Positions 1-34,486 of a DNA stretch of 43,165 nucleotides are shown here, piece after piece. Origin of the DNA: a virus (lineage: Duplodnaviria; Heunggongvirae; Uroviricota; Caudoviricetes); the IMG/VR virus record IMGVR_UViG_2541047954_000002, positions 1 through 43,165 of that record; one strand, given 5' to 3'. Positions within the stretch are counted from its first letter, which is position 1. The number at the start of each line of letters is the position of its first letter. The notes beneath the pieces are model-generated. The model searched no databases and had not been told where the DNA came from. It worked only from the letters and a program-made list of their open reading frames with translations. The position numbers and the translations under genes were made by a program.

Positions 1-1284
1 CTACTTCTTCGCCTCTGCAACCACTTTGCTACCCACGCCGCGGTTATTGTATTCCCACATGCGGTTGTAGTTAGTGTCATTCAGATTGCGCTGTACTTCG
101 TCGTTATCATCAACGCTGCCGGTGTTACCCGCAAATGGACGATTAGAGATCACCGCATCAGCCCACGGTTTGGCTGTGTTAAAACCTTCGTTGATGGCGC
201 TATCACGGATCACTACCTGACCGTTGGTATTGGCATCAACATCCAGCGAGCGGCCCAGTTGCGCCACGCCATCACCGGAAGCATTGAAACGGCTGTTTAC
301 GGCGAGGAAACCGTAGTAAATGTTGGACAGCGTAGCCGGTGCAAACACATACGCTTCTTGCTGGGTACGGGAGTTCACCACGCGGAATTCGGTGTTATCG
401 AACACCACTGCGCCGCGACCAGAAACGATATCCACATCCCCTTCAATATAGCTGTTGGTCACCAGCGTACGCGGCTGACGATTCGTTTCCAGACGGTTCT
501 GCACACCGCTGTTGGTGACAAAGAAGGTGTTCTGACGACCGAGAATGTTGACGTTATTGATCTGCACTTTGTCGCCATCAGTACGCAGTGCCACCGCCGG
601 ATGGTTACCCGCATCTACGCTATCGCCCAGCGTGTTTTCGATGGTCAGGTTTTGCAGTTGCAGGCCATTGTTTTGTGACCAGAAGACCGCAGAGCAGAGA
701 ACACCGATACTGTCGCTGCGTTTACTCTGGCAGCTATCGTACATATACCACGCCGGTTTACCTGGCATATATTTGCCGCGCGGGTTGACGTCGTGACGCC
801 AGTCGGCAGGGCTCATGCCACCATCAAGGGAAAGCCCAATCTTCACATCAATCGGTTTTTCACCCGTACCGTACAGAGTAATTCCACCCGGAGCGGCAGG
901 GACATACACCGTTCCCTGATACTCACCAGGCATCACGGCAATATACTGGCGCTTGTTGGTACGCTTGATAATTGCCGCATCTACCGCCGCCTGAATCGTG
1001 GTATGCGTTACACCTTGAGTACCCGCCGGGCCGACAACAAAGTCAGGTTGCGCAGGCAGGGTAATCGGGGAAGGATTCCACGCTGCCGCACCTGGTGTCA
1101 GGGATGCAAAATAGTGTTGAGCATCGAAATTCTGCGCTTCTTTTGCCGACAGAATCGGGCGCGAAGAGGTACCAGGCGCGGTTTGATCAGAAGGACGTTG
1201 ATCGGGCGGTGTTGAGCTACAGGCGGTCAGCGTCACGCCAAAAGCCAATGCCAGCGCCAGACGGGAAACTGAAAATGTGTTCAC
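1..1284 (-). CDS. ybhC: Host YbhC (pectinesterase-family outer-membrane lipoprotein / acyl-CoA thioesterase), complete 427 aa
   Basis: Full-length ORF with lipoprotein signal peptide (LTACSS); recognised as E. coli YbhC, the gene flanking lambda attB on the gal side; stop codon at 1..3 on the minus strand. Confidence 0.8.
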   Translation of the reverse strand: MNTFSVSRLALALAFGVTLTACSSTPPDQRPSDQTAPGTSSRPILSAKEAQNFDAQHYFASLTPGAAAWNPSPITLPAQPDFVVGPAGTQGVTHTTIQAAVDAAIIKRTNKRQYIAVMPGEYQGTVYVPAAPGGITLYGTGEKPIDVKIGLSLDGGMSPADWRHDVNPRGKYMPGKPAWYMYDSCQSKRSDSIGVLCSAVFWSQNNGLQLQNLTIENTLGDSVDAGNHPAVALRTDGDKVQINNVNILGRQNTFFVTNSGVQNRLETNRQPRTLVTNSYIEGDVDIVSGRGAVVFDNTEFRVVNSRTQQEAYVFAPATLSNIYYGFLAVNSRFNASGDGVAQLGRSLDVDANTNGQVVIRDSAINEGFNTAKPWADAVISNRPFAGNTGSVDDNDEVQRNLNDTNYNRMWEYNNRGVGSKVVAEAKK

Positions 1285-4275: not shown

Positions 4276-5014
4276 TGTTTGCCTCCTTTGCTCGCTGATT
4301 CCACTCTGCTCTAACCTCTGAATAAAAAATCGCGCAGTCATTTCCAGGCGCTGCATATTTGCTACCAGATTGAGCGCGACACGTACCGCATCGAACGAAA
4401 TAGAATCGACCGCCAGAGCCATATTCAGGGTGATCCGCTTCGCTGGCAACGTGCGCTGCGCCGCCACAGAATGGACATGGTAGTAGGTTGCTCATGAATG
4501 CACTCCCTTGAATGCACTCCCTTGAATGCACTCCCTTGCGAAGTTGGTCTGCACAATGCAGCAGGGCGTCCGTCGCATATTTAAGCCTCACTAGCTCACC
4601 ATCATCCATTCCCGCGAGATTCGCGTGTTTAACGAACGCCGAGCAAAGGTCATTAAACGCCTGCGCCCGCACTTCATCCAGGAAAGTGTCGGTGGCTGGG
4701 GTTTCAGTAACATCATCTTCCCATTCGCTAAACTCCTCACGACAAAAGTCATTAAATTCCTTCTCAGATTGCTTAAGCGAGGTATTTTCTGCAGCCATCT
4801 TCGCGCATTTAGCCTCAAGGTTATCAATCGTGATTCCAGCAGAACGACACTCCCGCAACGCCGTTTCCAGTTTTGATTCAAGCTCACCGAACTTACGCAC
4901 CAGATATTCAGCGTTTGTTTCGTTAACCTTTAAATCTCGTGGGATGCATTTACCTTTCAGAAAACCATCCATCTCAATTAGTGACATTTGTTTCATTTCT
5001 TCCCACTCCGCCAC
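4262..5014 (-). CDS. 250-aa ORF: N-terminal unknown domain fused in-frame through a 14-bp x3 repeat to a C-terminal Lar-family restriction-alleviation domain (internal start at 4495 would give a stand-alone 77-aa Lar)
   Basis: C-terminus [42 protein letters not shown] has the CPFCG...GGRFYFV...C signature of Lar-family proteins; upstream part is acidic/coiled. Confidence 0.6.
4496..4537. repeat. Perfect tandem triplication of a 14-bp unit (GAATGCACTCCCTT; minus-strand AAGGGAGTGCATTC, contains an SD-like AGGGAG)
   Basis: Three identical adjacent copies directly 5' of the Lar-domain ATG at 4495 on the minus strand. Confidence 0.95.
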
Positions 5015-5153
5015 ATCGCATTCAGATATTTGTTTTGATTCACTGAAGGAAAAGAATTTCTCTTAAGCAATTCCTCTCTCGATGGCATTGGCTTTACGCG
5101 TTGGCGAATAATCATTTCTGCCGGAAGAATGCCGGGATTGTATGCAAGTCCTC

Positions 5154-5462
5154 TCATGATTTACTCTCCACGAACTGGTCAATAGCCATGCTAAGTGACA
5201 CACCTAAAGTCTCGATATGCTGCTGAATATCCTGTAGCGTCTGCGCCTGAGATAACAGGATTTCACGGTTGCATAACTCTTTAACCAGATGCTCAAACTT
5301 GCTGTAATAACCGATACGACTTAGTGTTTCTTTGCCTGCATTCTCGCCTTCTTTGATAATTCCTCTTTCACTAAGAATCAGGTCGTGTTTTGTTCCGGTA
5401 ATAACGTATTTGCCGAGGTCGATGTTTAGCTTCATTGTTTTCATTGTTAATTCCTCAGTCAT
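5154..5462 (-). CDS. Hypothetical protein (~100 aa; start at 5462 or 5444)
   Basis: ORF with ATGA overlap to the upstream gene stop; GAGGAA SD before the 5444 ATG; no family recognised. Confidence 0.4.
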
Positions 5463-5748
5463 TACTGATAGCGCCATAGCGTGAGCGGTAATTACGCAGG
5501 CGCGGGTCAATTTCAGGGAAGTGGGTATATGTGGCTTTGCGGAATGGTCGGATTGATGTCTGGTAAATTCGCTCGCGTTCTTCTTTCTCTGCAAGCCATA
5601 TACAGTGGCGAAATTCCTTTTCATCTTTCGTTTCCTGCGGTAGAGACATTATCTGGTCGTAGTTTTTCCTGAATTTATCCAGCACCTCCAATACGGAATT
5701 GCCGGAACAGCGGCGCGCGTCGTCCGCACCATACAGAGGCGCTGGCAT
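5455..5748 (-). CDS. Hypothetical protein, 97 aa
   Basis: Intact ORF downstream of the SSB-like gene in the same operon. Confidence 0.4.
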   Translation of the reverse strand: MPAPLYGADDARRCSGNSVLEVLDKFRKNYDQIMSLPQETKDEKEFRHCIWLAEKEERERIYQTSIRPFRKATYTHFPEIDPRLRNYRSRYGAISND

Positions 5749-8278: not shown

Positions 8279-8410
8279 ATATCCTCCATCAAAAAAATCG
8301 CCCTCACATCGGAGGGCAAAGAAGATTTCCAATAATCAGAACAAGTCGGCTCCTGTTTAGTTACGAGCGACATTGCTCACATAGCAGACTCGCAAATCTG
8401 CTATAGGTGC

Positions 8411-8572
8411 TTATTCGCATCGCATGACAACATCAAATTTTTCGAGATTACTTTGTCGCAACAATCCCTCTTCTACGCGGTCAGCTTTTCTATAATTATC
8501 AAATTCGAAATGTTTAATTACTTCTTTCGTTTCTCGCTCTATAACTTCAACAATGTATTTCTTATTCATCAT
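8411..8572 (-). CDS. Hypothetical small protein, 53 aa
   Basis: ORF with ATGATGA start/stop overlap to the upstream gene. Confidence 0.4.
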   Translation of the reverse strand: MMNKKYIVEVIERETKEVIKHFEFDNYRKADRVEEGLLRQSNLEKFDVVMRCE

Positions 8573-8847
8573 TCTTCCCCCAGGGCCTTGCTGATGGCTG
8601 CCTTGGCTCGTTTGTATTCGGTTAACTCTCTGCACCCTTCGTCATGCTCGTAAAGGAAGACAAGCTCTTGCAGTGCTTCAAGCAAATCAGGAGCTGCTGC
8701 TATCAGTAGCGCATCCTCCCTTTCATTTCTTGTTGCTGCTTCAATGTATGTGTCACCAATCGTCACACCATGGAACGTAGTCATCATCTCGTTGACGTTT
8801 CTAACCGTGTACTTCCATTTACCAGGCGTACCCTTAAACTCTTTCAT
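8569..8847 (-). CDS. Hypothetical protein, 92 aa, with ALLIAAAPDLLEAL motif
   Basis: ORF with GAGGTGG SD; motif resembles the conserved segment of Ead/Ea22-family proteins. Confidence 0.45.
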   Translation of the reverse strand: MKEFKGTPGKWKYTVRNVNEMMTTFHGVTIGDTYIEAATRNEREDALLIAAAPDLLEALQELVFLYEHDEGCRELTEYKRAKAAISKALGEE

Positions 8848-8854
8848 ATCCACC

Positions 8855-8895
8855 TCTGTTGTTTATGCCAAAAATAAAGGCCGACTATGCGGCCT
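8855..8895. repeat. Copy 1 of a 41-bp direct repeat (38/41 identical to 9399..9439); minus-strand hairpin plus U-run, terminator-like
   Basis: TCTGTTGTTTATGCCAAAAATAAAGG identical in both copies; here followed by CCGACTATGCGGCCT, forming GGCCGCATAGTCGGCC + TTTATTTTT on the minus strand. Confidence 0.85.
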
Positions 8896-9364
8896 AGTAG
8901 AATACCCAATTTTCTGTTTCTTGGTTGTGTCCAAAGTTATATTCAATATCTGGTGTTGATGTATCAATATTCTTCATCCCATCAACAAGAGTTGATACAA
9001 CAGCCAAATCTTGTTTGATTCTCATTAAATGGTATTTCTTCCGGCGCAATAAACTTTCAATGGCAAGTTTCTTCGTTGGGAATGCAAAAGATCTTTCTGC
9101 ATTTTTTGCTACTTTCTTAATTGCATATCTATTTCTCCTTTGTTTCCATTCCTGTAACCACTGATTTGGTGCTGGTTTAAAATTAACAATCCAATGCGCA
9201 GGAACCAACCATGCATAATGCTCTGTCTGATGAAAAGCTATATATTGAAGTGCGAATATTTTGATTCCATCTTCTTCAACTGTCGCCTGGAATCTCCAGA
9301 AAACAGGCATTCCCTCATGTTCAGTTTCTGATTCAGGAAAAGGTACGCTCCATGATTTTGTCAT
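8894..9364 (-). CDS. Hypothetical protein, 156 aa, AT-rich cargo gene bounded by the 41-bp direct repeats
   Basis: Intact ORF with GAGGTGAGAT SD; AT-rich relative to neighbours; no family recognised. Confidence 0.55.
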   Translation of the reverse strand: MTKSWSVPFPESETEHEGMPVFWRFQATVEEDGIKIFALQYIAFHQTEHYAWLVPAHWIVNFKPAPNQWLQEWKQRRNRYAIKKVAKNAERSFAFPTKKLAIESLLRRKKYHLMRIKQDLAVVSTLVDGMKNIDTSTPDIEYNFGHNQETENWVFY

Positions 9365-9398
9365 ATCTCACCTCAAATAATTCAGTGCAGTGTTTATT

Positions 9399-9439
9399 CT
9401 GTTGTTTATGCCAAAAATAAAGGACGATTATGCGACCTC
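9399..9439. repeat. Copy 2 of the 41-bp direct repeat (degenerate hairpin)
   Basis: Same 26-bp core as copy 1; lies between the stop of the 9428..10051 gene and the start of the 8894..9364 gene. Confidence 0.85.
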
Positions 9440-10051
9440 GGAAGGAAGTCCAATCATCTTATTCAAATCTTCTACCCGTAAAGCAGGAAGTGCAGTACTT
9501 GCTTTATCTGCTTCTTTTGGTAGCAACTCTTTGCTTTCAGGCCAAACTTCAATAAGTCGCTTAACTGTTGTGACTGAGTTCAAAGCAGCCCATACATTTG
9601 ATTCGATATCCTTTTTCTTGGCTTCAAATTTTTGTTGCAATGCGCAGATTTCATCAAACCTTTTTGTTATTTCGTGTTCTGCGCTAAACATGCATTTATC
9701 TTTGGTCGGAGTAGGGAGCAATATATCTTCGCCGTTGCCGTCTTTCCCATATGAATACCAGCCAACCCTTCTGCCAGATACAGTCAGATAAATTGAAGTT
9801 GAACGGGCATCGCATGAGTAAAATGAACATCCCAGCTTTTCAAGTTCTTCACTTATAGCTACTAACTTGGATGATAACTGATCCACTTCCTCAGTTTTCT
9901 TTTTACCGCCAAACGCAATAACTCTGGCGTCAAGTGCAAGCTGGTTATTTAACTTTGTTACTTCTTCAAGTTCAGTGAAAACCCCGGACTTAATTAAAGC
10001 GTTACGAGCGATTTTCTCTTTCATTCTCGTAGTTAAGCGGATTGATGACAT
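9428..10051 (-). CDS. Hypothetical protein, 207 aa, first gene downstream of N in the pL operon
   Basis: ORF with GAGAGGAA SD before the ATG at 10051, 11 nt after the N stop; AT-rich; no family recognised. Confidence 0.5.
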   Translation of the reverse strand: MSSIRLTTRMKEKIARNALIKSGVFTELEEVTKLNNQLALDARVIAFGGKKKTEEVDQLSSKLVAISEELEKLGCSFYSCDARSTSIYLTVSGRRVGWYSYGKDGNGEDILLPTPTKDKCMFSAEHEITKRFDEICALQQKFEAKKKDIESNVWAALNSVTTVKRLIEVWPESKELLPKEADKASTALPALRVEDLNKMIGLPSEVA

Positions 10052-10062
10052 ATTAATTCCTC

Positions 10063-10389
10063 TCAAATAAGTGGTTTGCTGCCTAATTTCATTTTCTGGC
10101 GACCAACACAAGTCACACCCATTTCACTGCGTGGCTTGCTGTACCATGTGCGCTGATTCTTGCGCTCAATACGTTGCAGGTTGCTTTCAATCTGTTCGTG
10201 GTATTCAGCCAGTACCGTAAGGTCTATCGGATTCAGTGCGCTTTCTACTCGTGATTTCGGTTTGCGATTCAGCGAGAGAATAGGGCGGTTAACTGGTTTT
10301 GCGCTTACCCCAACCAACAGGGGATTTGCTGCTTTCCATTGAGCCTGTTTCTCTGCGCGACGTTCGCGGCGGCGTGTTTGTGCATCCAT
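10063..10389 (-). CDS. N: Antitermination protein N (lambda-type), 108 aa
   Basis: MDAQTRRRERRAEKQAQWKAANPLLVGVSAKPVNRPILSLNRKPKSRVESALNPIDLTVLAEYH... matches lambda N including the arginine-rich motif. Confidence 0.95.
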   Translation of the reverse strand: MDAQTRRRERRAEKQAQWKAANPLLVGVSAKPVNRPILSLNRKPKSRVESALNPIDLTVLAEYHEQIESNLQRIERKNQRTWYSKPRSEMGVTCVGRQKMKLGSKPLI

Positions 10390-10609: not shown

Positions 10610-10700
10610 ATGGCTTAAAATATACCTACAGGTAAAACTATTGTCTATACCTGCAGGTAAATAAAATTGGTGTGAGAGTTTACCTGTTTGAATTTTCAGG
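10610..10700 (-). promoter_or_regulatory. OL/pL region with TACCTNCAGGTA-type palindromic operators
   Basis: TACCTACAGGTAAA, TACCTGCAGGTAAA and TTACCTG...CAGGTAA palindromes upstream of nutL/N; the same motif recurs at OR. Confidence 0.6.
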
Positions 10701-10719: not shown

Positions 10720-10745
10720 ATATAAAAAAGCCCGCTTTGCGGGCT
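10720..10745 (-). terminator. Rho-independent terminator closing the cI operon
   Basis: Hairpin AGCCCGC-TTT-GCGGGCT followed on the minus strand by a U-run; 12 nt after the stop of the 10757..11071 gene. Confidence 0.6.
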
Positions 10746-10756
10746 GAAAGGAGATG

Positions 10757-11071
10757 TCAGAAGCTATTTGGATTGCTTGGCCATTGCGGCAATTTTGATT
10801 CTACCGGGGTGTGTTTGGGTTTGAGTCCGTTTAAGTAGTCAAGACGCTCAATGGCGCATTTATACATAGCAATCTGATCTGATGACATGTCGTCATATGA
10901 CATGCCTTTGAACTTCTTAATTATCGTTTCTGCCTCATGTATAAGATGCTTCTTCTTCATGAGTTCAGCTGTATGCTTAGAGCTTACAGGAGATAACTTT
11001 GCCCATATGAAGCAGATGATTACAACAGCGACCACTATACCTGGTATAAACATTTGCTGCTTTATCCTCAA
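10757..11071 (-). CDS. Small membrane protein (single N-terminal TM helix, 104 aa) co-transcribed downstream of cI
   Basis: Hydrophobic segment FIPGIVVAVVIICFIWAKL; start overlaps the cI stop; followed by a terminator; occupies the rexAB slot of lambda. Confidence 0.55.
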   Translation of the reverse strand: MRIKQQMFIPGIVVAVVIICFIWAKLSPVSSKHTAELMKKKHLIHEAETIIKKFKGMSYDDMSSDQIAMYKCAIERLDYLNGLKPKHTPVESKLPQWPSNPNSF

Positions 11072-11754
11072 AATTTTGGCAGATCGTCCTGGTCTACATA
11101 CCTAGTGTGTTTCACAATAGCTGAAACAAAATGCATTTTATCAACTTCTTCAACAGGAAGAGTGATTGGACGGTGATCGCTGTTTATACTACTAAACTGA
11201 TAGTCTCCGTCTCTTGTTTTGTTCATGATCTTTATCATGTTATGACCATCTTTGGTCCTTACAAAGACTTCATCACCTGGATGTACTGGCGTATTTGGTT
11301 CAATAACAACATATTCTCCTGACTGAATCCTTGGCCACATGCTGTCACCCTTAACCTTCAGACCGTAAGCATCTTTATCGCCACTGTAGATGCTTAACCA
11401 ACCGGATCTGAATTCAATCATATCCACTGAGCCATCAACTCCCAAAACGGCTTCACCAATTACCGGAACAAAACCCGCACGAACGTTACCCGCAAACTCA
11501 AGATGGTCTGCAGATCCAACTTTGCTATCTGCAAGCATGTCCATCCATCCGCGTGGGAGATTAAAAGATTTTTCAATTAGCTCCATCATATCGTCAGCAA
11601 TGCGTTTTTTTCCGCTTTTTCCTTCCGGATACAGCATTCTGGAAACGTATGATGGTTCCCTTTCTATTCGACGAGCCAACTCTGAGGCCTTTCCATTACA
11701 GAATCGGTCTCTTATCTCTATCAGCCTTAGTCGTCTTTGTTCGTATTTATCCAT
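11068..11754 (-). CDS. cI: Prophage CI repressor with C-terminal S24 (LexA-like) autopeptidase domain, 228 aa
   Basis: C-terminal KVKGDSMWPRIQSGEYVV motif; divergent from cro across an operator-containing intergenic region. Confidence 0.8.
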   Translation of the reverse strand: MDKYEQRRLRLIEIRDRFCNGKASELARRIEREPSYVSRMLYPEGKSGKKRIADDMMELIEKSFNLPRGWMDMLADSKVGSADHLEFAGNVRAGFVPVIGEAVLGVDGSVDMIEFRSGWLSIYSGDKDAYGLKVKGDSMWPRIQSGEYVVIEPNTPVHPGDEVFVRTKDGHNMIKIMNKTRDGDYQFSSINSDHRPITLPVEEVDKMHFVSAIVKHTRYVDQDDLPKF

Positions 11755-19031: not shown

Positions 19032-19106
19032 GGGTCAGTCGTATAAAGGTCATTACGGAAGGCTGTTAACCTTCTTATCGTGGTTCGAGCCCACGCTGTC
19101 CCGCCA
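19032..19106 (+). tRNA. tRNA gene, anticodon GUU by hand folding (tRNA-Asn-like), encoded CCA
   Basis: Hand-folded cloverleaf: acceptor GGGTCAG/CTGTCCC (one mismatch), anticodon stem GAAGG/CCTTC with loop CTGTTAA, T-arm CGTGG-TTCGAGC-CCACG, 3' GCCA. Confidence 0.5.
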
Positions 19107-19111
19107 AACAT

Positions 19112-19187
19112 GCTGGTTTAGCTCCAATGGTAGAGCAGTCGCCTTGTAAGCGAATGGGTAGCGGTTCAAGTCCGTTAACCAGCACCA
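19112..19187 (+). tRNA. tRNA gene, anticodon UGU by hand folding (tRNA-Thr-like), encoded CCA
   Basis: Perfect 7-bp acceptor GCTGGTT/AACCAGC, D-arm GCTC..GAGC, anticodon loop CTTGTAA, T-arm AGCGG-TTCAAGT-CCGTT, 3' ACCA. Confidence 0.65.
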
Positions 19188-33184: not shown

Positions 33185-34486
33185 ATGGCTACTTGGCAAC
33201 AAGGAATCAACTCAGGCGGCTTTCTTGCTGGTATCGGTGGGCAAAACTCAAATGCGCCAAAGGCAAGTGATGTAAGTGAGGCGTTGGCCTATATTCGCCA
33301 GAACAACGAAATGGAGCGCTCAGGTCGCAATAACATCGGCCTTCAGGCGTTGCAGGGTCTTGGTAGTGTCGCTCAAGCATATCAAGCCGCAAAGCAACAG
33401 GAAGCGGATGCTGCATTCCAAAAAGAATATGCGGCAGCCATCCAGTCCGGCGATCGACAGCAGGTTCGAAATCTGATGACCAAATATCCTGGTCAATTAG
33501 AGAAGATTCAGTCTGGTATGAAGTGGGCAGACGAAGACCAGCGCAATTCCATCGGTACCTTAGCGGCTGGCGCACGCCTTGCGTCATCGTCTCCAGAAGC
33601 AATGCAATCATGGCTGCAAAACAACGCCAAGGAACTGACTCGCGTCGGTGTTGACCCTAATAACGTTGCTCAGATGTATCAGCAGAATCCTTCAGGATTT
33701 GGTGAGTTTGTTGATCACCTTGGAATGGCTGCTCTTGGTCCGATTGATTACTTCAATGTTCAGGACAAGATGGCTGGTCGTGAGATTGACCGAGGCAGGC
33801 TGGCAGAGACAATCCGCAGCAATCAGGCAGGAGAAGCACTAACAGCTCGAGGTCAGGACATCCAGATACGTGGACAGAACATCAGCGCACAGAATGCTGC
33901 TCTTTCCCGAGAAATACAAAGAGCAGAATTACAAGAAAAGGCTCTGGACAGACAGATAGCCAGAGAAAGCAATCAGTTAAAGCTTGAAGAGCTAAAACAG
34001 AAACAGGCAGATGTTCGGCAAAAGGCTGACATAGCCCGCGCTGACAGGCAGGCCGCCGCTCAGGGTGCAGTTGATACGTTCAGCACCGCGCTTGATTCTC
34101 TCAACGAGATAGAGCAAAGCCCCGGCCTTTCAAAAGCAGTAGGAATTCGCTCAGCGTTTCCGACAGTTCCTGGCTCTGATGCGGCTAACTTTGAAGCAAG
34201 GCTCGACACCTTTAAAGCTCAAACATTCCTTCCTATGGTGCAGTCCCTGAAGGGTATGGGCGCTCTTTCAGATGCAGAGGGTAAAAAATTATCCGATGCG
34301 GTTGGTGCCCTAAGCCCCAAAATGAGTGAAAAGGCTTTTCGTGACTCTATCGGAAAGATTAGAAATCAGCTTGAAAGCAAGTTGAGCACTGTTAAAAAAC
34401 AGTTTGATTATCAGGAGCCGGTGCAGAATATGCCAGGGCAACAATCTACTACTGGCAGTAACTTTTCTTCGCTATGGGGTGATTAA
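33185..34486 (+). CDS. Ejection (DNA-transfer) protein, gp20-like, 433 aa
   Basis: Position and size in the P22-like order; Ala/Gln-rich. Confidence 0.7.
   Translation: MATWQQGINSGGFLAGIGGQNSNAPKASDVSEALAYIRQNNEMERSGRNNIGLQALQGLGSVAQAYQAAKQQEADAAFQKEYAAAIQSGDRQQVRNLMTKYPGQLEKIQSGMKWADEDQRNSIGTLAAGARLASSSPEAMQSWLQNNAKELTRVGVDPNNVAQMYQQNPSGFGEFVDHLGMAALGPIDYFNVQDKMAGREIDRGRLAETIRSNQAGEALTARGQDIQIRGQNISAQNAALSREIQRAELQEKALDRQIARESNQLKLEELKQKQADVRQKADIARADRQAAAQGAVDTFSTALDSLNEIEQSPGLSKAVGIRSAFPTVPGSDAANFEARLDTFKAQTFLPMVQSLKGMGALSDAEGKKLSDAVGALSPKMSEKAFRDSIGKIRNQLESKLSTVKKQFDYQEPVQNMPGQQSTTGSNFSSLWGD

Follow-up and report, generated by a model that had tools for sequence, protein, structure and literature searches.

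The DNA analysed here is a lambdoid prophage sequence of 43,165 nucleotides (IMG/VR record IMGVR_UViG_2541047954_000002, positions 1 to 43,165; the whole stretch is referred to below as the window), in which the early-left (pL) operon is read on the minus strand. Directly after the antiterminator gene N, this operon carries two genes, gene A (9428..10051, 207 aa) and gene B (8894..9364, 156 aa), each followed by a copy of a 41-bp repeat that is here named T1. The two T1 sequences are probably copies of a conserved, terminator-like junction of lambdoid phages at which the genes of this slot are swapped, so that the arrangement is one of ordinary mosaicism. The segment itself is a variable accessory-gene slot of the lambdoid pL operon, located between N and the small RNA (sRNA) PreS. 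What is new is the combination of known parts; the genes belong to known families of open reading frames (ORFs) of unknown function. A preliminary description of this DNA, made from its letters alone, had located both minus-strand ORFs and the repeat after each, all of which were recovered, and had taken the pattern for modular cassette insertion; the latter did not hold up, as T1 proved to be a junction that is widespread in lambdoid phages, normally present once, and placed behind at least 14 gene families with no relation to each other.

The two copies of T1, at 8855-8895 (copy 1) and 9398-9438 (copy 2), are identical at 38 of 41 positions and are spaced 543 bp apart; at three or fewer mismatches two matches were observed, against 0.00 expected in 100 shuffles. 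The exact 26-nt run common to both copies is formed by their first 26 nt. Read on the minus strand, copy 1 consists of AGGCCG-CAUAGU-CGGCCU followed by UUAUUUUUGG, a hairpin of six pairs (five of them G-C) with a loop of six, inside a structure of -13.6 kcal/mol. It was picked by the terminator scan and has the GC-rich hairpin and subsequent run of U residues (U-run) of an intrinsic terminator on the transcribed strand. Copy 2 (AGGUCG-CAUAAU-CGUCCU) has a central U.U mismatch and a weak fold (-6.1 kcal/mol, z = -0.14), which bears out the earlier view of it as degenerate. This weakened allele is also found after gene A homologues at four of the loci listed (L019, L058, L074 and L100), indicating that copy 2 was inherited in its weak form and did not decay locally; copy 1 is identical to the copy in phage Dewey. 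Both copies overlap the gene before them, copy 2 by the final 11 nt of the 207-aa ORF and copy 1 by the stop codon of the 156-aa ORF. That the element abuts the Shine-Dalgarno sequence (SD) of the next gene, as had been proposed for both copies, is true of copy 1, which adjoins the SD of a 92-aa ORF (ATG at 8847), and not of copy 2, where ~24 nt of other conserved sequence lie before the SD of the 156-aa gene. Rfam searches at gathering thresholds and at E <= 5 returned no match for the T1 element or the region.

A search of phage records with 55 nt around copy 1 found T1 in 223 records, including lambda, HK97-like phages, P22-like phages (Sf6, CUS-3 and Salmonella phages) and many Shiga toxin (Stx) phages. 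A second set was collected from IMG/VR with an exact 18-nt core pattern, which gave at least 120 loci and, together with reference phages, 124 usable T1 copies; the loci cited by an L number include these, their IMG/VR part consists of the matches listed, and the counts that follow refer to this set (125 sequences where copy number is compared). In lambda, T1 lies at 34055-34087 of J02459, at the stop codon of ral, in keeping with the suggestion that the window holds a variable accessory slot like that of lambda; in the record of phage mEp234 the depositors annotate T1 as a rho-independent terminator. The element has three parts, a terminator-type hairpin, a U-run and an invariant GGCAUAAACAACAGA, the last of which either provides an SD for the gene that follows or passes into the spacer that precedes PreS. 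Upstream of the 124 copies stand at least 14 unrelated gene families, among them ral (66 aa), an 83-aa gene like VT2-Sakai p20, the Nmad5 family to which gene A belongs, gene B, and genes of 149, 107 and 62 aa; several others are singletons. Downstream there are at least 16 contexts of two types: a gene start 15 nt past the core, in the form ACAACAGAGG-N6-AUG, which is used by at least 10 different genes, or the lambda-type spacer AAUAAACACUGCACUGUGUAUUC... that runs toward PreS. The spacer class accounts for the ~64% of copies that have no gene start after T1. The table of upstream by downstream families is well filled, and a single downstream gene beginning MEFKGTEG is preceded by seven different upstream families.

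Just outside the 18-nt pattern, sequence identity remains high (0.8-0.94 at positions -2/-1, 0.76-1.0 from +18 to +25), and it drops to 0.3-0.55 farther out. T1 is thus an island of near-identity of ~40-45 nt between otherwise unrelated flanks, which is the pattern of a boundary sequence, a short conserved patch at a gene boundary with different flanks in different phages. Most of the 37 distinct T1 variants fold into hairpins of -9 to -16.5 kcal/mol. The 5' arm of the hairpin is often coding (AAG-GCU-GCC-UGA or GAG-GCC-GCA-UAG), and it places (K/E)-A-A-stop at the end of many unrelated proteins. As a separate observation, lambda ea10 (L003 700-745, minus strand, i.e., lambda ~33500-33545) also ends in K-A-A-stop (AAG GCC GCC UGA) within a small hairpin with a U-run behind it, and AA-stop is also the ending of several other genes at these loci, such that the theme of Ala-Ala-stop in a terminator arm recurs beyond T1.

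The T1 hairpins fall into two classes, GGCCGCAUAGUCGGCC and AAGGCUGCCUGAUGGUGGCCUU, whose differences are wobble-compatible and not doubly compensatory. Among the named upstream families, each family has one hairpin class without exception: class B is found after ral and the p20-like gene and class A after all the others, and one singleton upstream gene has a class B hairpin too. There is no such linkage to the downstream class, with 26 direct and 41 spacer copies in one hairpin class against 19 and 38 in the other. Linkage upstream without linkage downstream indicates that exchanges take place 3' of the hairpin, in the invariant CCUUUAUUUUUGGCAUAAACAACAGA (26 nt), and the distribution of classes thus points to crossovers inside the conserved patch. 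The minimal efficient pairing segment has been given as 23-27 nt for Red-beta and 31-34 nt for RecA (PMC3945230); the 26-nt patch lies within the Red-beta range, and the window phage encodes Erf.

These features suggest a mechanism in which the invariant 26 nt would serve as a crossover patch for gene swaps by homologous recombination, with phage single-strand-annealing (Rad52-type) recombinases such as Red, Erf and RecT using it to exchange whole genes. A swapped gene would bring its own 3' end, consisting of stop codon and hairpin, and would hand a ready SD to its new neighbour. At the transcript level, the hairpin and U-run may act as an N-suppressible terminator or as a 3'-end hairpin or stabiliser. 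More speculatively, gene A and gene B may ride on the immediate-early transcript of N; such sharing is possible because copy 2 is weak and no other strong intrinsic terminator was predicted from N to copy 1 by the terminator scan, rho-dependent termination being outside what that scan assesses.

Several points weigh against this reading. The loci were collected by an exact 18-nt pattern, and the invariance of the T1 core is therefore partly a matter of ascertainment; independent evidence comes only from the conserved positions beyond the pattern and from the way in which the flanks are shuffled. The lambda T1 and copy 2 of the window fold poorly, which means that terminator activity is not universal, and the case for termination at T1 consists solely of prediction and the annotation by the mEp234 depositors. 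Conservation of the 26 nt could stem from an RNA or translational function, with recombination as a by-product, and some junctions adjacent to T1 look like microhomology or illegitimate joins (CACTG repeats, GAATAA). Regarding the gene products, the AlphaFold2 model of the gene B protein is poor (predicted local distance difference test score, pLDDT, of 54) with fold matches that are not interpretable, and the roles proposed below for the two proteins are purely inferred.

The slot and its borders are made up of the following features, given in the order of transcription:

10647..10619, minus strand: pL-like promoter, from the promoter/terminator scan.
10063..10389, minus strand: lambda-type antiterminator gene N (translation MDAQTRRRERR...; Pfam PF11438 N36, E = 1.5e-26), the left border of the slot.
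9428..10051, minus strand: gene A, a stand-alone Nmad5-family protein of 207 aa, with ATG at 10051 and SD in GAGAGGAATTAAT-ATG.
9398..9438, minus strand: T1 copy 2, a weakened hairpin coding ...E-V-A-stop of Nmad5, then U-run and GGCAUAAACAACAGA.
9383..9397, minus strand: lambda-type spacer remnant of 15 nt, AUAAACACUGCACUG, from comparison with lambda and 41+38 "spacer" loci.
9365..9380, minus strand: N 3' remnant (last codons and stop, lambda-type), UUAUUUGAGGUGAGAU, which doubles as the SD of gene B.
8894..9364, minus strand: gene B, 156 aa, of the HK97 gp45 / 933W L0079 family (phrog_1636, E = 7e-112), with SD in GAGGTGAGAT-ATG.
8855..8895, minus strand: T1 copy 1, an intact terminator-type hairpin and U-run whose 3' end gives the SD of the next gene.
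8569..8847, minus strand: gene of 92 aa (phrog_1273), with ATG at 8847, of the family that most often starts directly after T1.
8411..8575, minus strand: gene of 54 aa (phrog_6949), the last gene of the slot.
8291..8378, minus strand: PreS/LPR1 homologue with the tL2a terminator (8319..8298), the right border of the slot.

The PreS homologue at 8291-8378 is what brackets the slot between N and PreS. Farther downstream, past the strong terminator at 8319..8298, lie the genes for a coiled-coil protein of 322 aa, followed by cIII, kil and erf. Pfam identified N, cIII, Kil, Erf and an S24-peptidase repressor among the neighbours, and gave no match for the neighbouring ORFs of 156, 92, 54, 322, 104, 57 and 56 aa. 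Both genes of the pair have a good SD. Genes A and B had been described as AT-rich, which is correct in comparison with N (36-40% against ~50% GC); their composition is similar to that of the immunity region. The phrog_1273 genes that stand right after T1 (window 8569-8847; L005-L124) share the start M-x-F-K-G-T and a C-terminal half (..AAAPDLLEALQ....ISKALGxE), while their middle parts are very different and their lengths range from 44 to 111 aa; common ends with divergent middles suggest intragenic mosaicism.

Among the 125 sequences listed, two full copies of T1 are found in the window only. The sole other case with two T1 sequences, the IMG/VR prophage L113 (~11387-11700), is a local tandem duplication of the 3' end of a 149-aa gene together with T1, with a 1-nt deletion in the U-run of the second copy. 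The parts on either side of gene B can be traced separately. Its 5' flank, UUAUUUGAGGUGAGAU-AUG, is the lambda-type end of N, as in phage Dewey, where gene B directly follows N; the 16 nt of this remnant (9365..9380) are identical to the junction of the N stop codon and gene B in Dewey and to a 57-nt remnant in HK97. The HK97 remnant (L126 2443-2500) is a non-coding lambda-type N 3' end between that phage's own H19B/933W-type N and gp45, and is a fossil of N-module replacement. Upstream of the N remnant in the window stand the 15 nt of AUAAACACUGCACUG; in lambda, the spacer of this type runs from T1 to PreS.

In related phages the genes are present or absent at conserved junctions, as is seen in Dewey, HK542, HK97 and 933W; this supports the preliminary description, which had proposed such a comparison. 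The order in HK97 and 933W is N, gene B, spacer, PreS; in Dewey it is N, gene B, T1, 92-aa gene; and in HK542, N and Nmad5 are followed by T1. In at least six IMG/VR loci, Nmad5 or the 149-aa gene is followed by T1, spacer, gene B, spacer and PreS. Gene B therefore lies in the pL operon next to N in HK97 and 933W as well, but there it comes directly after N and is followed by the PreS spacer without T1, whereas in the window it comes after Nmad5 and T1 and is followed by T1 and the 92-aa gene. Among 5426 complete E. coli genomes, 41 carry the series N, Nmad5, T1', gene B, and in no case (0/41) does the match reach over the join of gene B, T1 and the 92-aa gene. These arrangements suggest that two T1-ending modules were joined in the window, the left one being N-Nmad5-T1-spacer-gene B and the right one the Dewey-type gene B-T1-92-aa gene, and a single crossover within gene B would be the most economical route to this order. 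A 6-bp "target duplication" (GCACTG) around gene B was also considered and set aside; its simpler source is the CACTGCACTG repeat in the lambda spacer.

Both proteins had been described as matching no recognisable family. The 207-aa product of gene A is a full-length Nmad5 protein (Pfam PF18757; 237 bits against a cut-off of 27, E = 3e-70, profile positions 1-206 of 206) and also matches phrog_1965, of unknown function; the 156-aa product of gene B is the long-sequenced HK97 Gp45 / 933W L0079, to which it is 98.7-99.4% identical. T1 being a common intergenic junction is one of two outcomes that the preliminary description had named as telling against it; the other, that both proteins have characterised, mundane functions, is not what was found.

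Prophages of Escherichia, Cronobacter, Klebsiella, Enterobacter, Pantoea, Erwinia, Providencia and Serratia have homologues of gene A of ~207-210 aa, for which the precomputed Pfam domain is likewise Nmad5, and the Nmad5 domain was detected by tblastn in 376 phage records, including Pseudomonas Yua-like phages, Vibrio and Bordetella phages and Dhillonvirus. The AlphaFold2 model is confident (pLDDT 85). In it, three long helices are followed by a small beta element and a fourth long helix, and the conserved LPALxVxDLNxxIGLP is located in a tail of poor order. Some papers call Nmad5 a DNA modification enzyme, but neither an enzyme-like structural match nor catalytic residues were found for the 207-aa protein, a PDB sequence search returned only noise, and Pfam detected none of the nucleotide-modification genes on which the family name is based among the window neighbours. 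The modelled helical bundle looks more like a binding protein than an enzyme. Two further observations concern Nmad5 loci. In Klebsiella prophages (L130-L132, gene at 5001-5630), the early-left operon opens with an Nmad5 gene (209 aa), ~420 nt after a cI-like repressor gene; no N gene was called and no T1 follows at these loci, their neighbours are cI, Kil and integrase, and an antitermination RNA, put-like or of another kind, could be present in the long leader (L132 4600-5000). In the window, a 133-aa ORF (9390-9791, plus strand) runs antisense to Nmad5 and starts inside T1 copy 2; its counterpart is the annotated coding sequence HK542c101 in EF120458, and the AT-rich antisense strand has probably given rise to it as an artefact of annotation.

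With tblastn, the gene B family was found in 87 phage records, among them those of HK97, 933W and many Stx phages, and all close homologues come from Enterobacterales. When 1.84 billion representatives were searched with a profile, 87 more distant relatives of ~130-155 aa were detected, which match phrog_13631 and phrog_25384 (both of unknown function) and have no Pfam family or name. For gene B itself there was no Pfam, NCBIfam, PADLOC or PDB match, PDB sequence and profile searches giving only noise. The most conserved stretch of the protein is strongly basic (RYAIKKVAKxAERSFAF...LLRRKKYHLMRLKQD) and the C-terminal half of this stretch lies in the long central helix of the model; the basic segment is a weak hint at binding of nucleic acid or of an acidic partner. 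One remote relative adjoins AAA_24 and DUF3799 proteins and a Pectobacterium homologue adjoins xis/int, contexts that say no more than "phage early region".

Both proteins most likely act early on the host in a way that the phage can do without, for instance in takeover or counter-defence, a role that is proposed by reason of their position and optional presence alone. A narrower proposal, raised in the preliminary description, is that at least one of them is a dedicated counter-defence or superinfection-exclusion factor like Ral or SieB. Both genes occupy the sieB/ral slot of lambda and are optional, and the early-left genes of the Klebsiella prophages begin with Nmad5, next after the repressor. 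In addition, a K-to-E substitution in the 334-aa Nmad5 protein of Dhillonvirus leads to escape from Tmn defence, while deletion of the protein does not (PMC11846954), and the escape residue aligns with R165 of a conserved K164-R165 dyad in the 207-aa protein. The K-R dyad and a WPExxELxP motif are common to both proteins; the Dhillonvirus protein is encoded antisense inside the head-gene module, as opposed to the stand-alone 207-aa protein in the pL operon, and the two are 30% identical over 100 residues, so that the Tmn result is carried over from a rather different protein. Neither protein has similarity to a PADLOC family (the sole entry, Cas1_II at E = 0.018, is noise) or an NCBIfam match. 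Pfam, in which the coverage of Ral, SieB and Ea10 was left unchecked, gives Nmad5 as the sole match of the 207-aa protein, and the 156-aa protein has no significant match there. No phenotype is on record for either protein in lambdoid phages, and the literature search on 933W L0079 and HK97 gp45 found nothing relevant. A dedicated counter-defence or exclusion role is accordingly a tentative proposition, with the odds somewhat against it. More doubtful is its extended form, in which Nmad5 and/or the gp45/L0079 protein would be an early inhibitor or decoy of a host immune sensor, with K164-R165 as contact surface, and T1 would be kept for the exchange of counter-defence genes. If this were true, T1 would let lambdoid phages trade ready-to-express counter-defence units, each made up of a coding end, a terminator and the next SD.

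T1 might instead be conserved mainly for an RNA function, as the 3' end of an Hfq-binding sRNA, as a processing or stability signal of the pL transcript upstream of PreS or as a shared translation leader of the next gene, with recombination being incidental. A hairpin followed by a U-run is typical of the 3' ends of Hfq-dependent sRNAs, at least 10 different genes have an SD (ACAACAGAGG-N6-AUG) that is continuous with the invariant tail, and the conservation past the hairpin exceeds what a terminator alone would need. There is also an sRNA close by: lambda PreS/LPR1, which lies between ral and ea10, ends at tL2a and upregulates the host gene dnaN (bioRxiv 10.1101/2024.10.31.621285), is located ~60 nt past T1. 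The primers in Table S5 of that study delimit PreS as GAGCAATGTCGC...CCTCCAGTGTGAGGGCGATTTTTT, which places its end in lambda at a second hairpin, ~130 nt downstream of T1. The study maps the 5' end of PreS downstream of T1, at GAGCAAUG, and the parts of it that were covered mention no sRNA that ends at T1. The lambda T1 hairpin is moreover degenerate, and the spacer-class copies have no gene start for a translation leader to serve. Taken together, an RNA function as the main cause of conservation appears improbable. Identification of T1 as the lambda tL2a terminator was ruled out, since the study assigns tL2a to the PreS 3' end, which the primers place at the second hairpin. The PreS homologue of the window (8291-8378, minus strand) differs from that of lambda by 2 loop nt only, and Rfam 15 detected neither T1 nor PreS. 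Right 5' of PreS, the window has a perfect 8-bp hairpin (8381-8404, minus strand; AUAGCAGA-uuugcgag-UCUGCUAU), and lambda (L003 ~1210-1240, minus strand) and HK97 have a different perfect 9-bp hairpin in the same place (GUGUAUUCA-uuccaacgag-UGAAUACAC); as the structure is kept while its sequence is replaced, it may serve in processing and thereby define where PreS starts.

The reading of the preliminary description, in which each gene is a mobile cassette and the 41-bp repeats are insertion or terminal sites, acquired in an integron-like manner or by site-specific capture, has in its favour that the element follows each of the two genes, that related phages have or lack each gene at conserved junctions, and that the element is an imperfect palindrome found after many different genes. 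The likeness to integron cassettes goes further, as these too are promoterless genes in variable order behind one promoter with an imperfect palindrome (attC) after each. In integrons, however, attC follows each cassette, whereas T1 is single-copy in 124 of the 125 listed sequences, the window being the only one with two full copies and L113 a local tandem duplication. T1 marks only the 3' sides of genes, whereas their 5' sides use other junctions, either the 3' end of N or an SD that comes right behind T1; the 5' arm of its hairpin belongs to the upstream coding sequence and co-varies with it; and gene B has no T1 after it in HK97, 933W and at least six IMG/VR loci. The palindrome of T1 is a short GC hairpin with a U-run, its junctions are explained by homologous or microhomology recombination, the window has no integron integrase or attI, and no recombinase was found in or beside the slot, where the Pfam-identified neighbours are N, cIII, Kil and Erf. 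Mobile cassettes are for these reasons a very improbable source of the pattern. A chance or low-complexity match, suggested at most by the A/T-rich middle of T1, can be discarded given the shuffles and the near-identical copies in 223 phage records.

The interpretation of T1 as a conserved junction for ordinary gene exchange is closest to the "boundary sequences" at lambdoid module junctions, a concept cited in PMC3233612. Like these, T1 is a short conserved patch at a gene boundary with unrelated flanks and a proposed focus of homologous recombination; it is not identical to "boundary sequence 4" (GAATACACAGTGC...) of the HK542 immunity-region record EF120458, which sits 8 nt downstream of T1. 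The ral-ea10 region of lambda has the same position in the operon, with T1 after ral, then the spacer and PreS ending at tL2a, and the window has the same PreS/tL2a; the lambda T1 is degenerate, and where lambda has sieB and ral the window has four other genes, with T1 present twice. Phage morons are similarly optional, AT-richer genes that stand between conserved genes and end in a terminator. Morons have a promoter of their own, whereas the scan detected no promoter-like site on the minus strand at 8850-10060, and the window genes are read from pL in the early operon. Elsewhere in the window, a 104-aa ORF (10757-11071, minus strand) with a strongly hydrophobic N-terminal third lies between the repressor gene and pL, the position of lambda rexAB; it is followed by a strong terminator (10745..10729), has no Pfam match and has the look of a prophage-expressed moron. 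Two adjacent tRNA genes are located at 19032-19184 on the plus strand (Rfam tRNA, 53 and 61.5 bits).

For annotation, the T1 repeat is not the signature of a mobile cassette but a landmark of the pL operon, which marks the end of the N-proximal accessory genes upstream of PreS. The two widespread N-proximal proteins encoded here, with 376 and 87 phage records respectively, are reasonable candidates for defence and counter-defence screens. For the evolution of lambdoid phages, T1 provides a clean and quantifiable example of a conserved boundary patch, with a length near the minimal segment of Red-beta and a pattern of linkage that would place the crossovers inside it.

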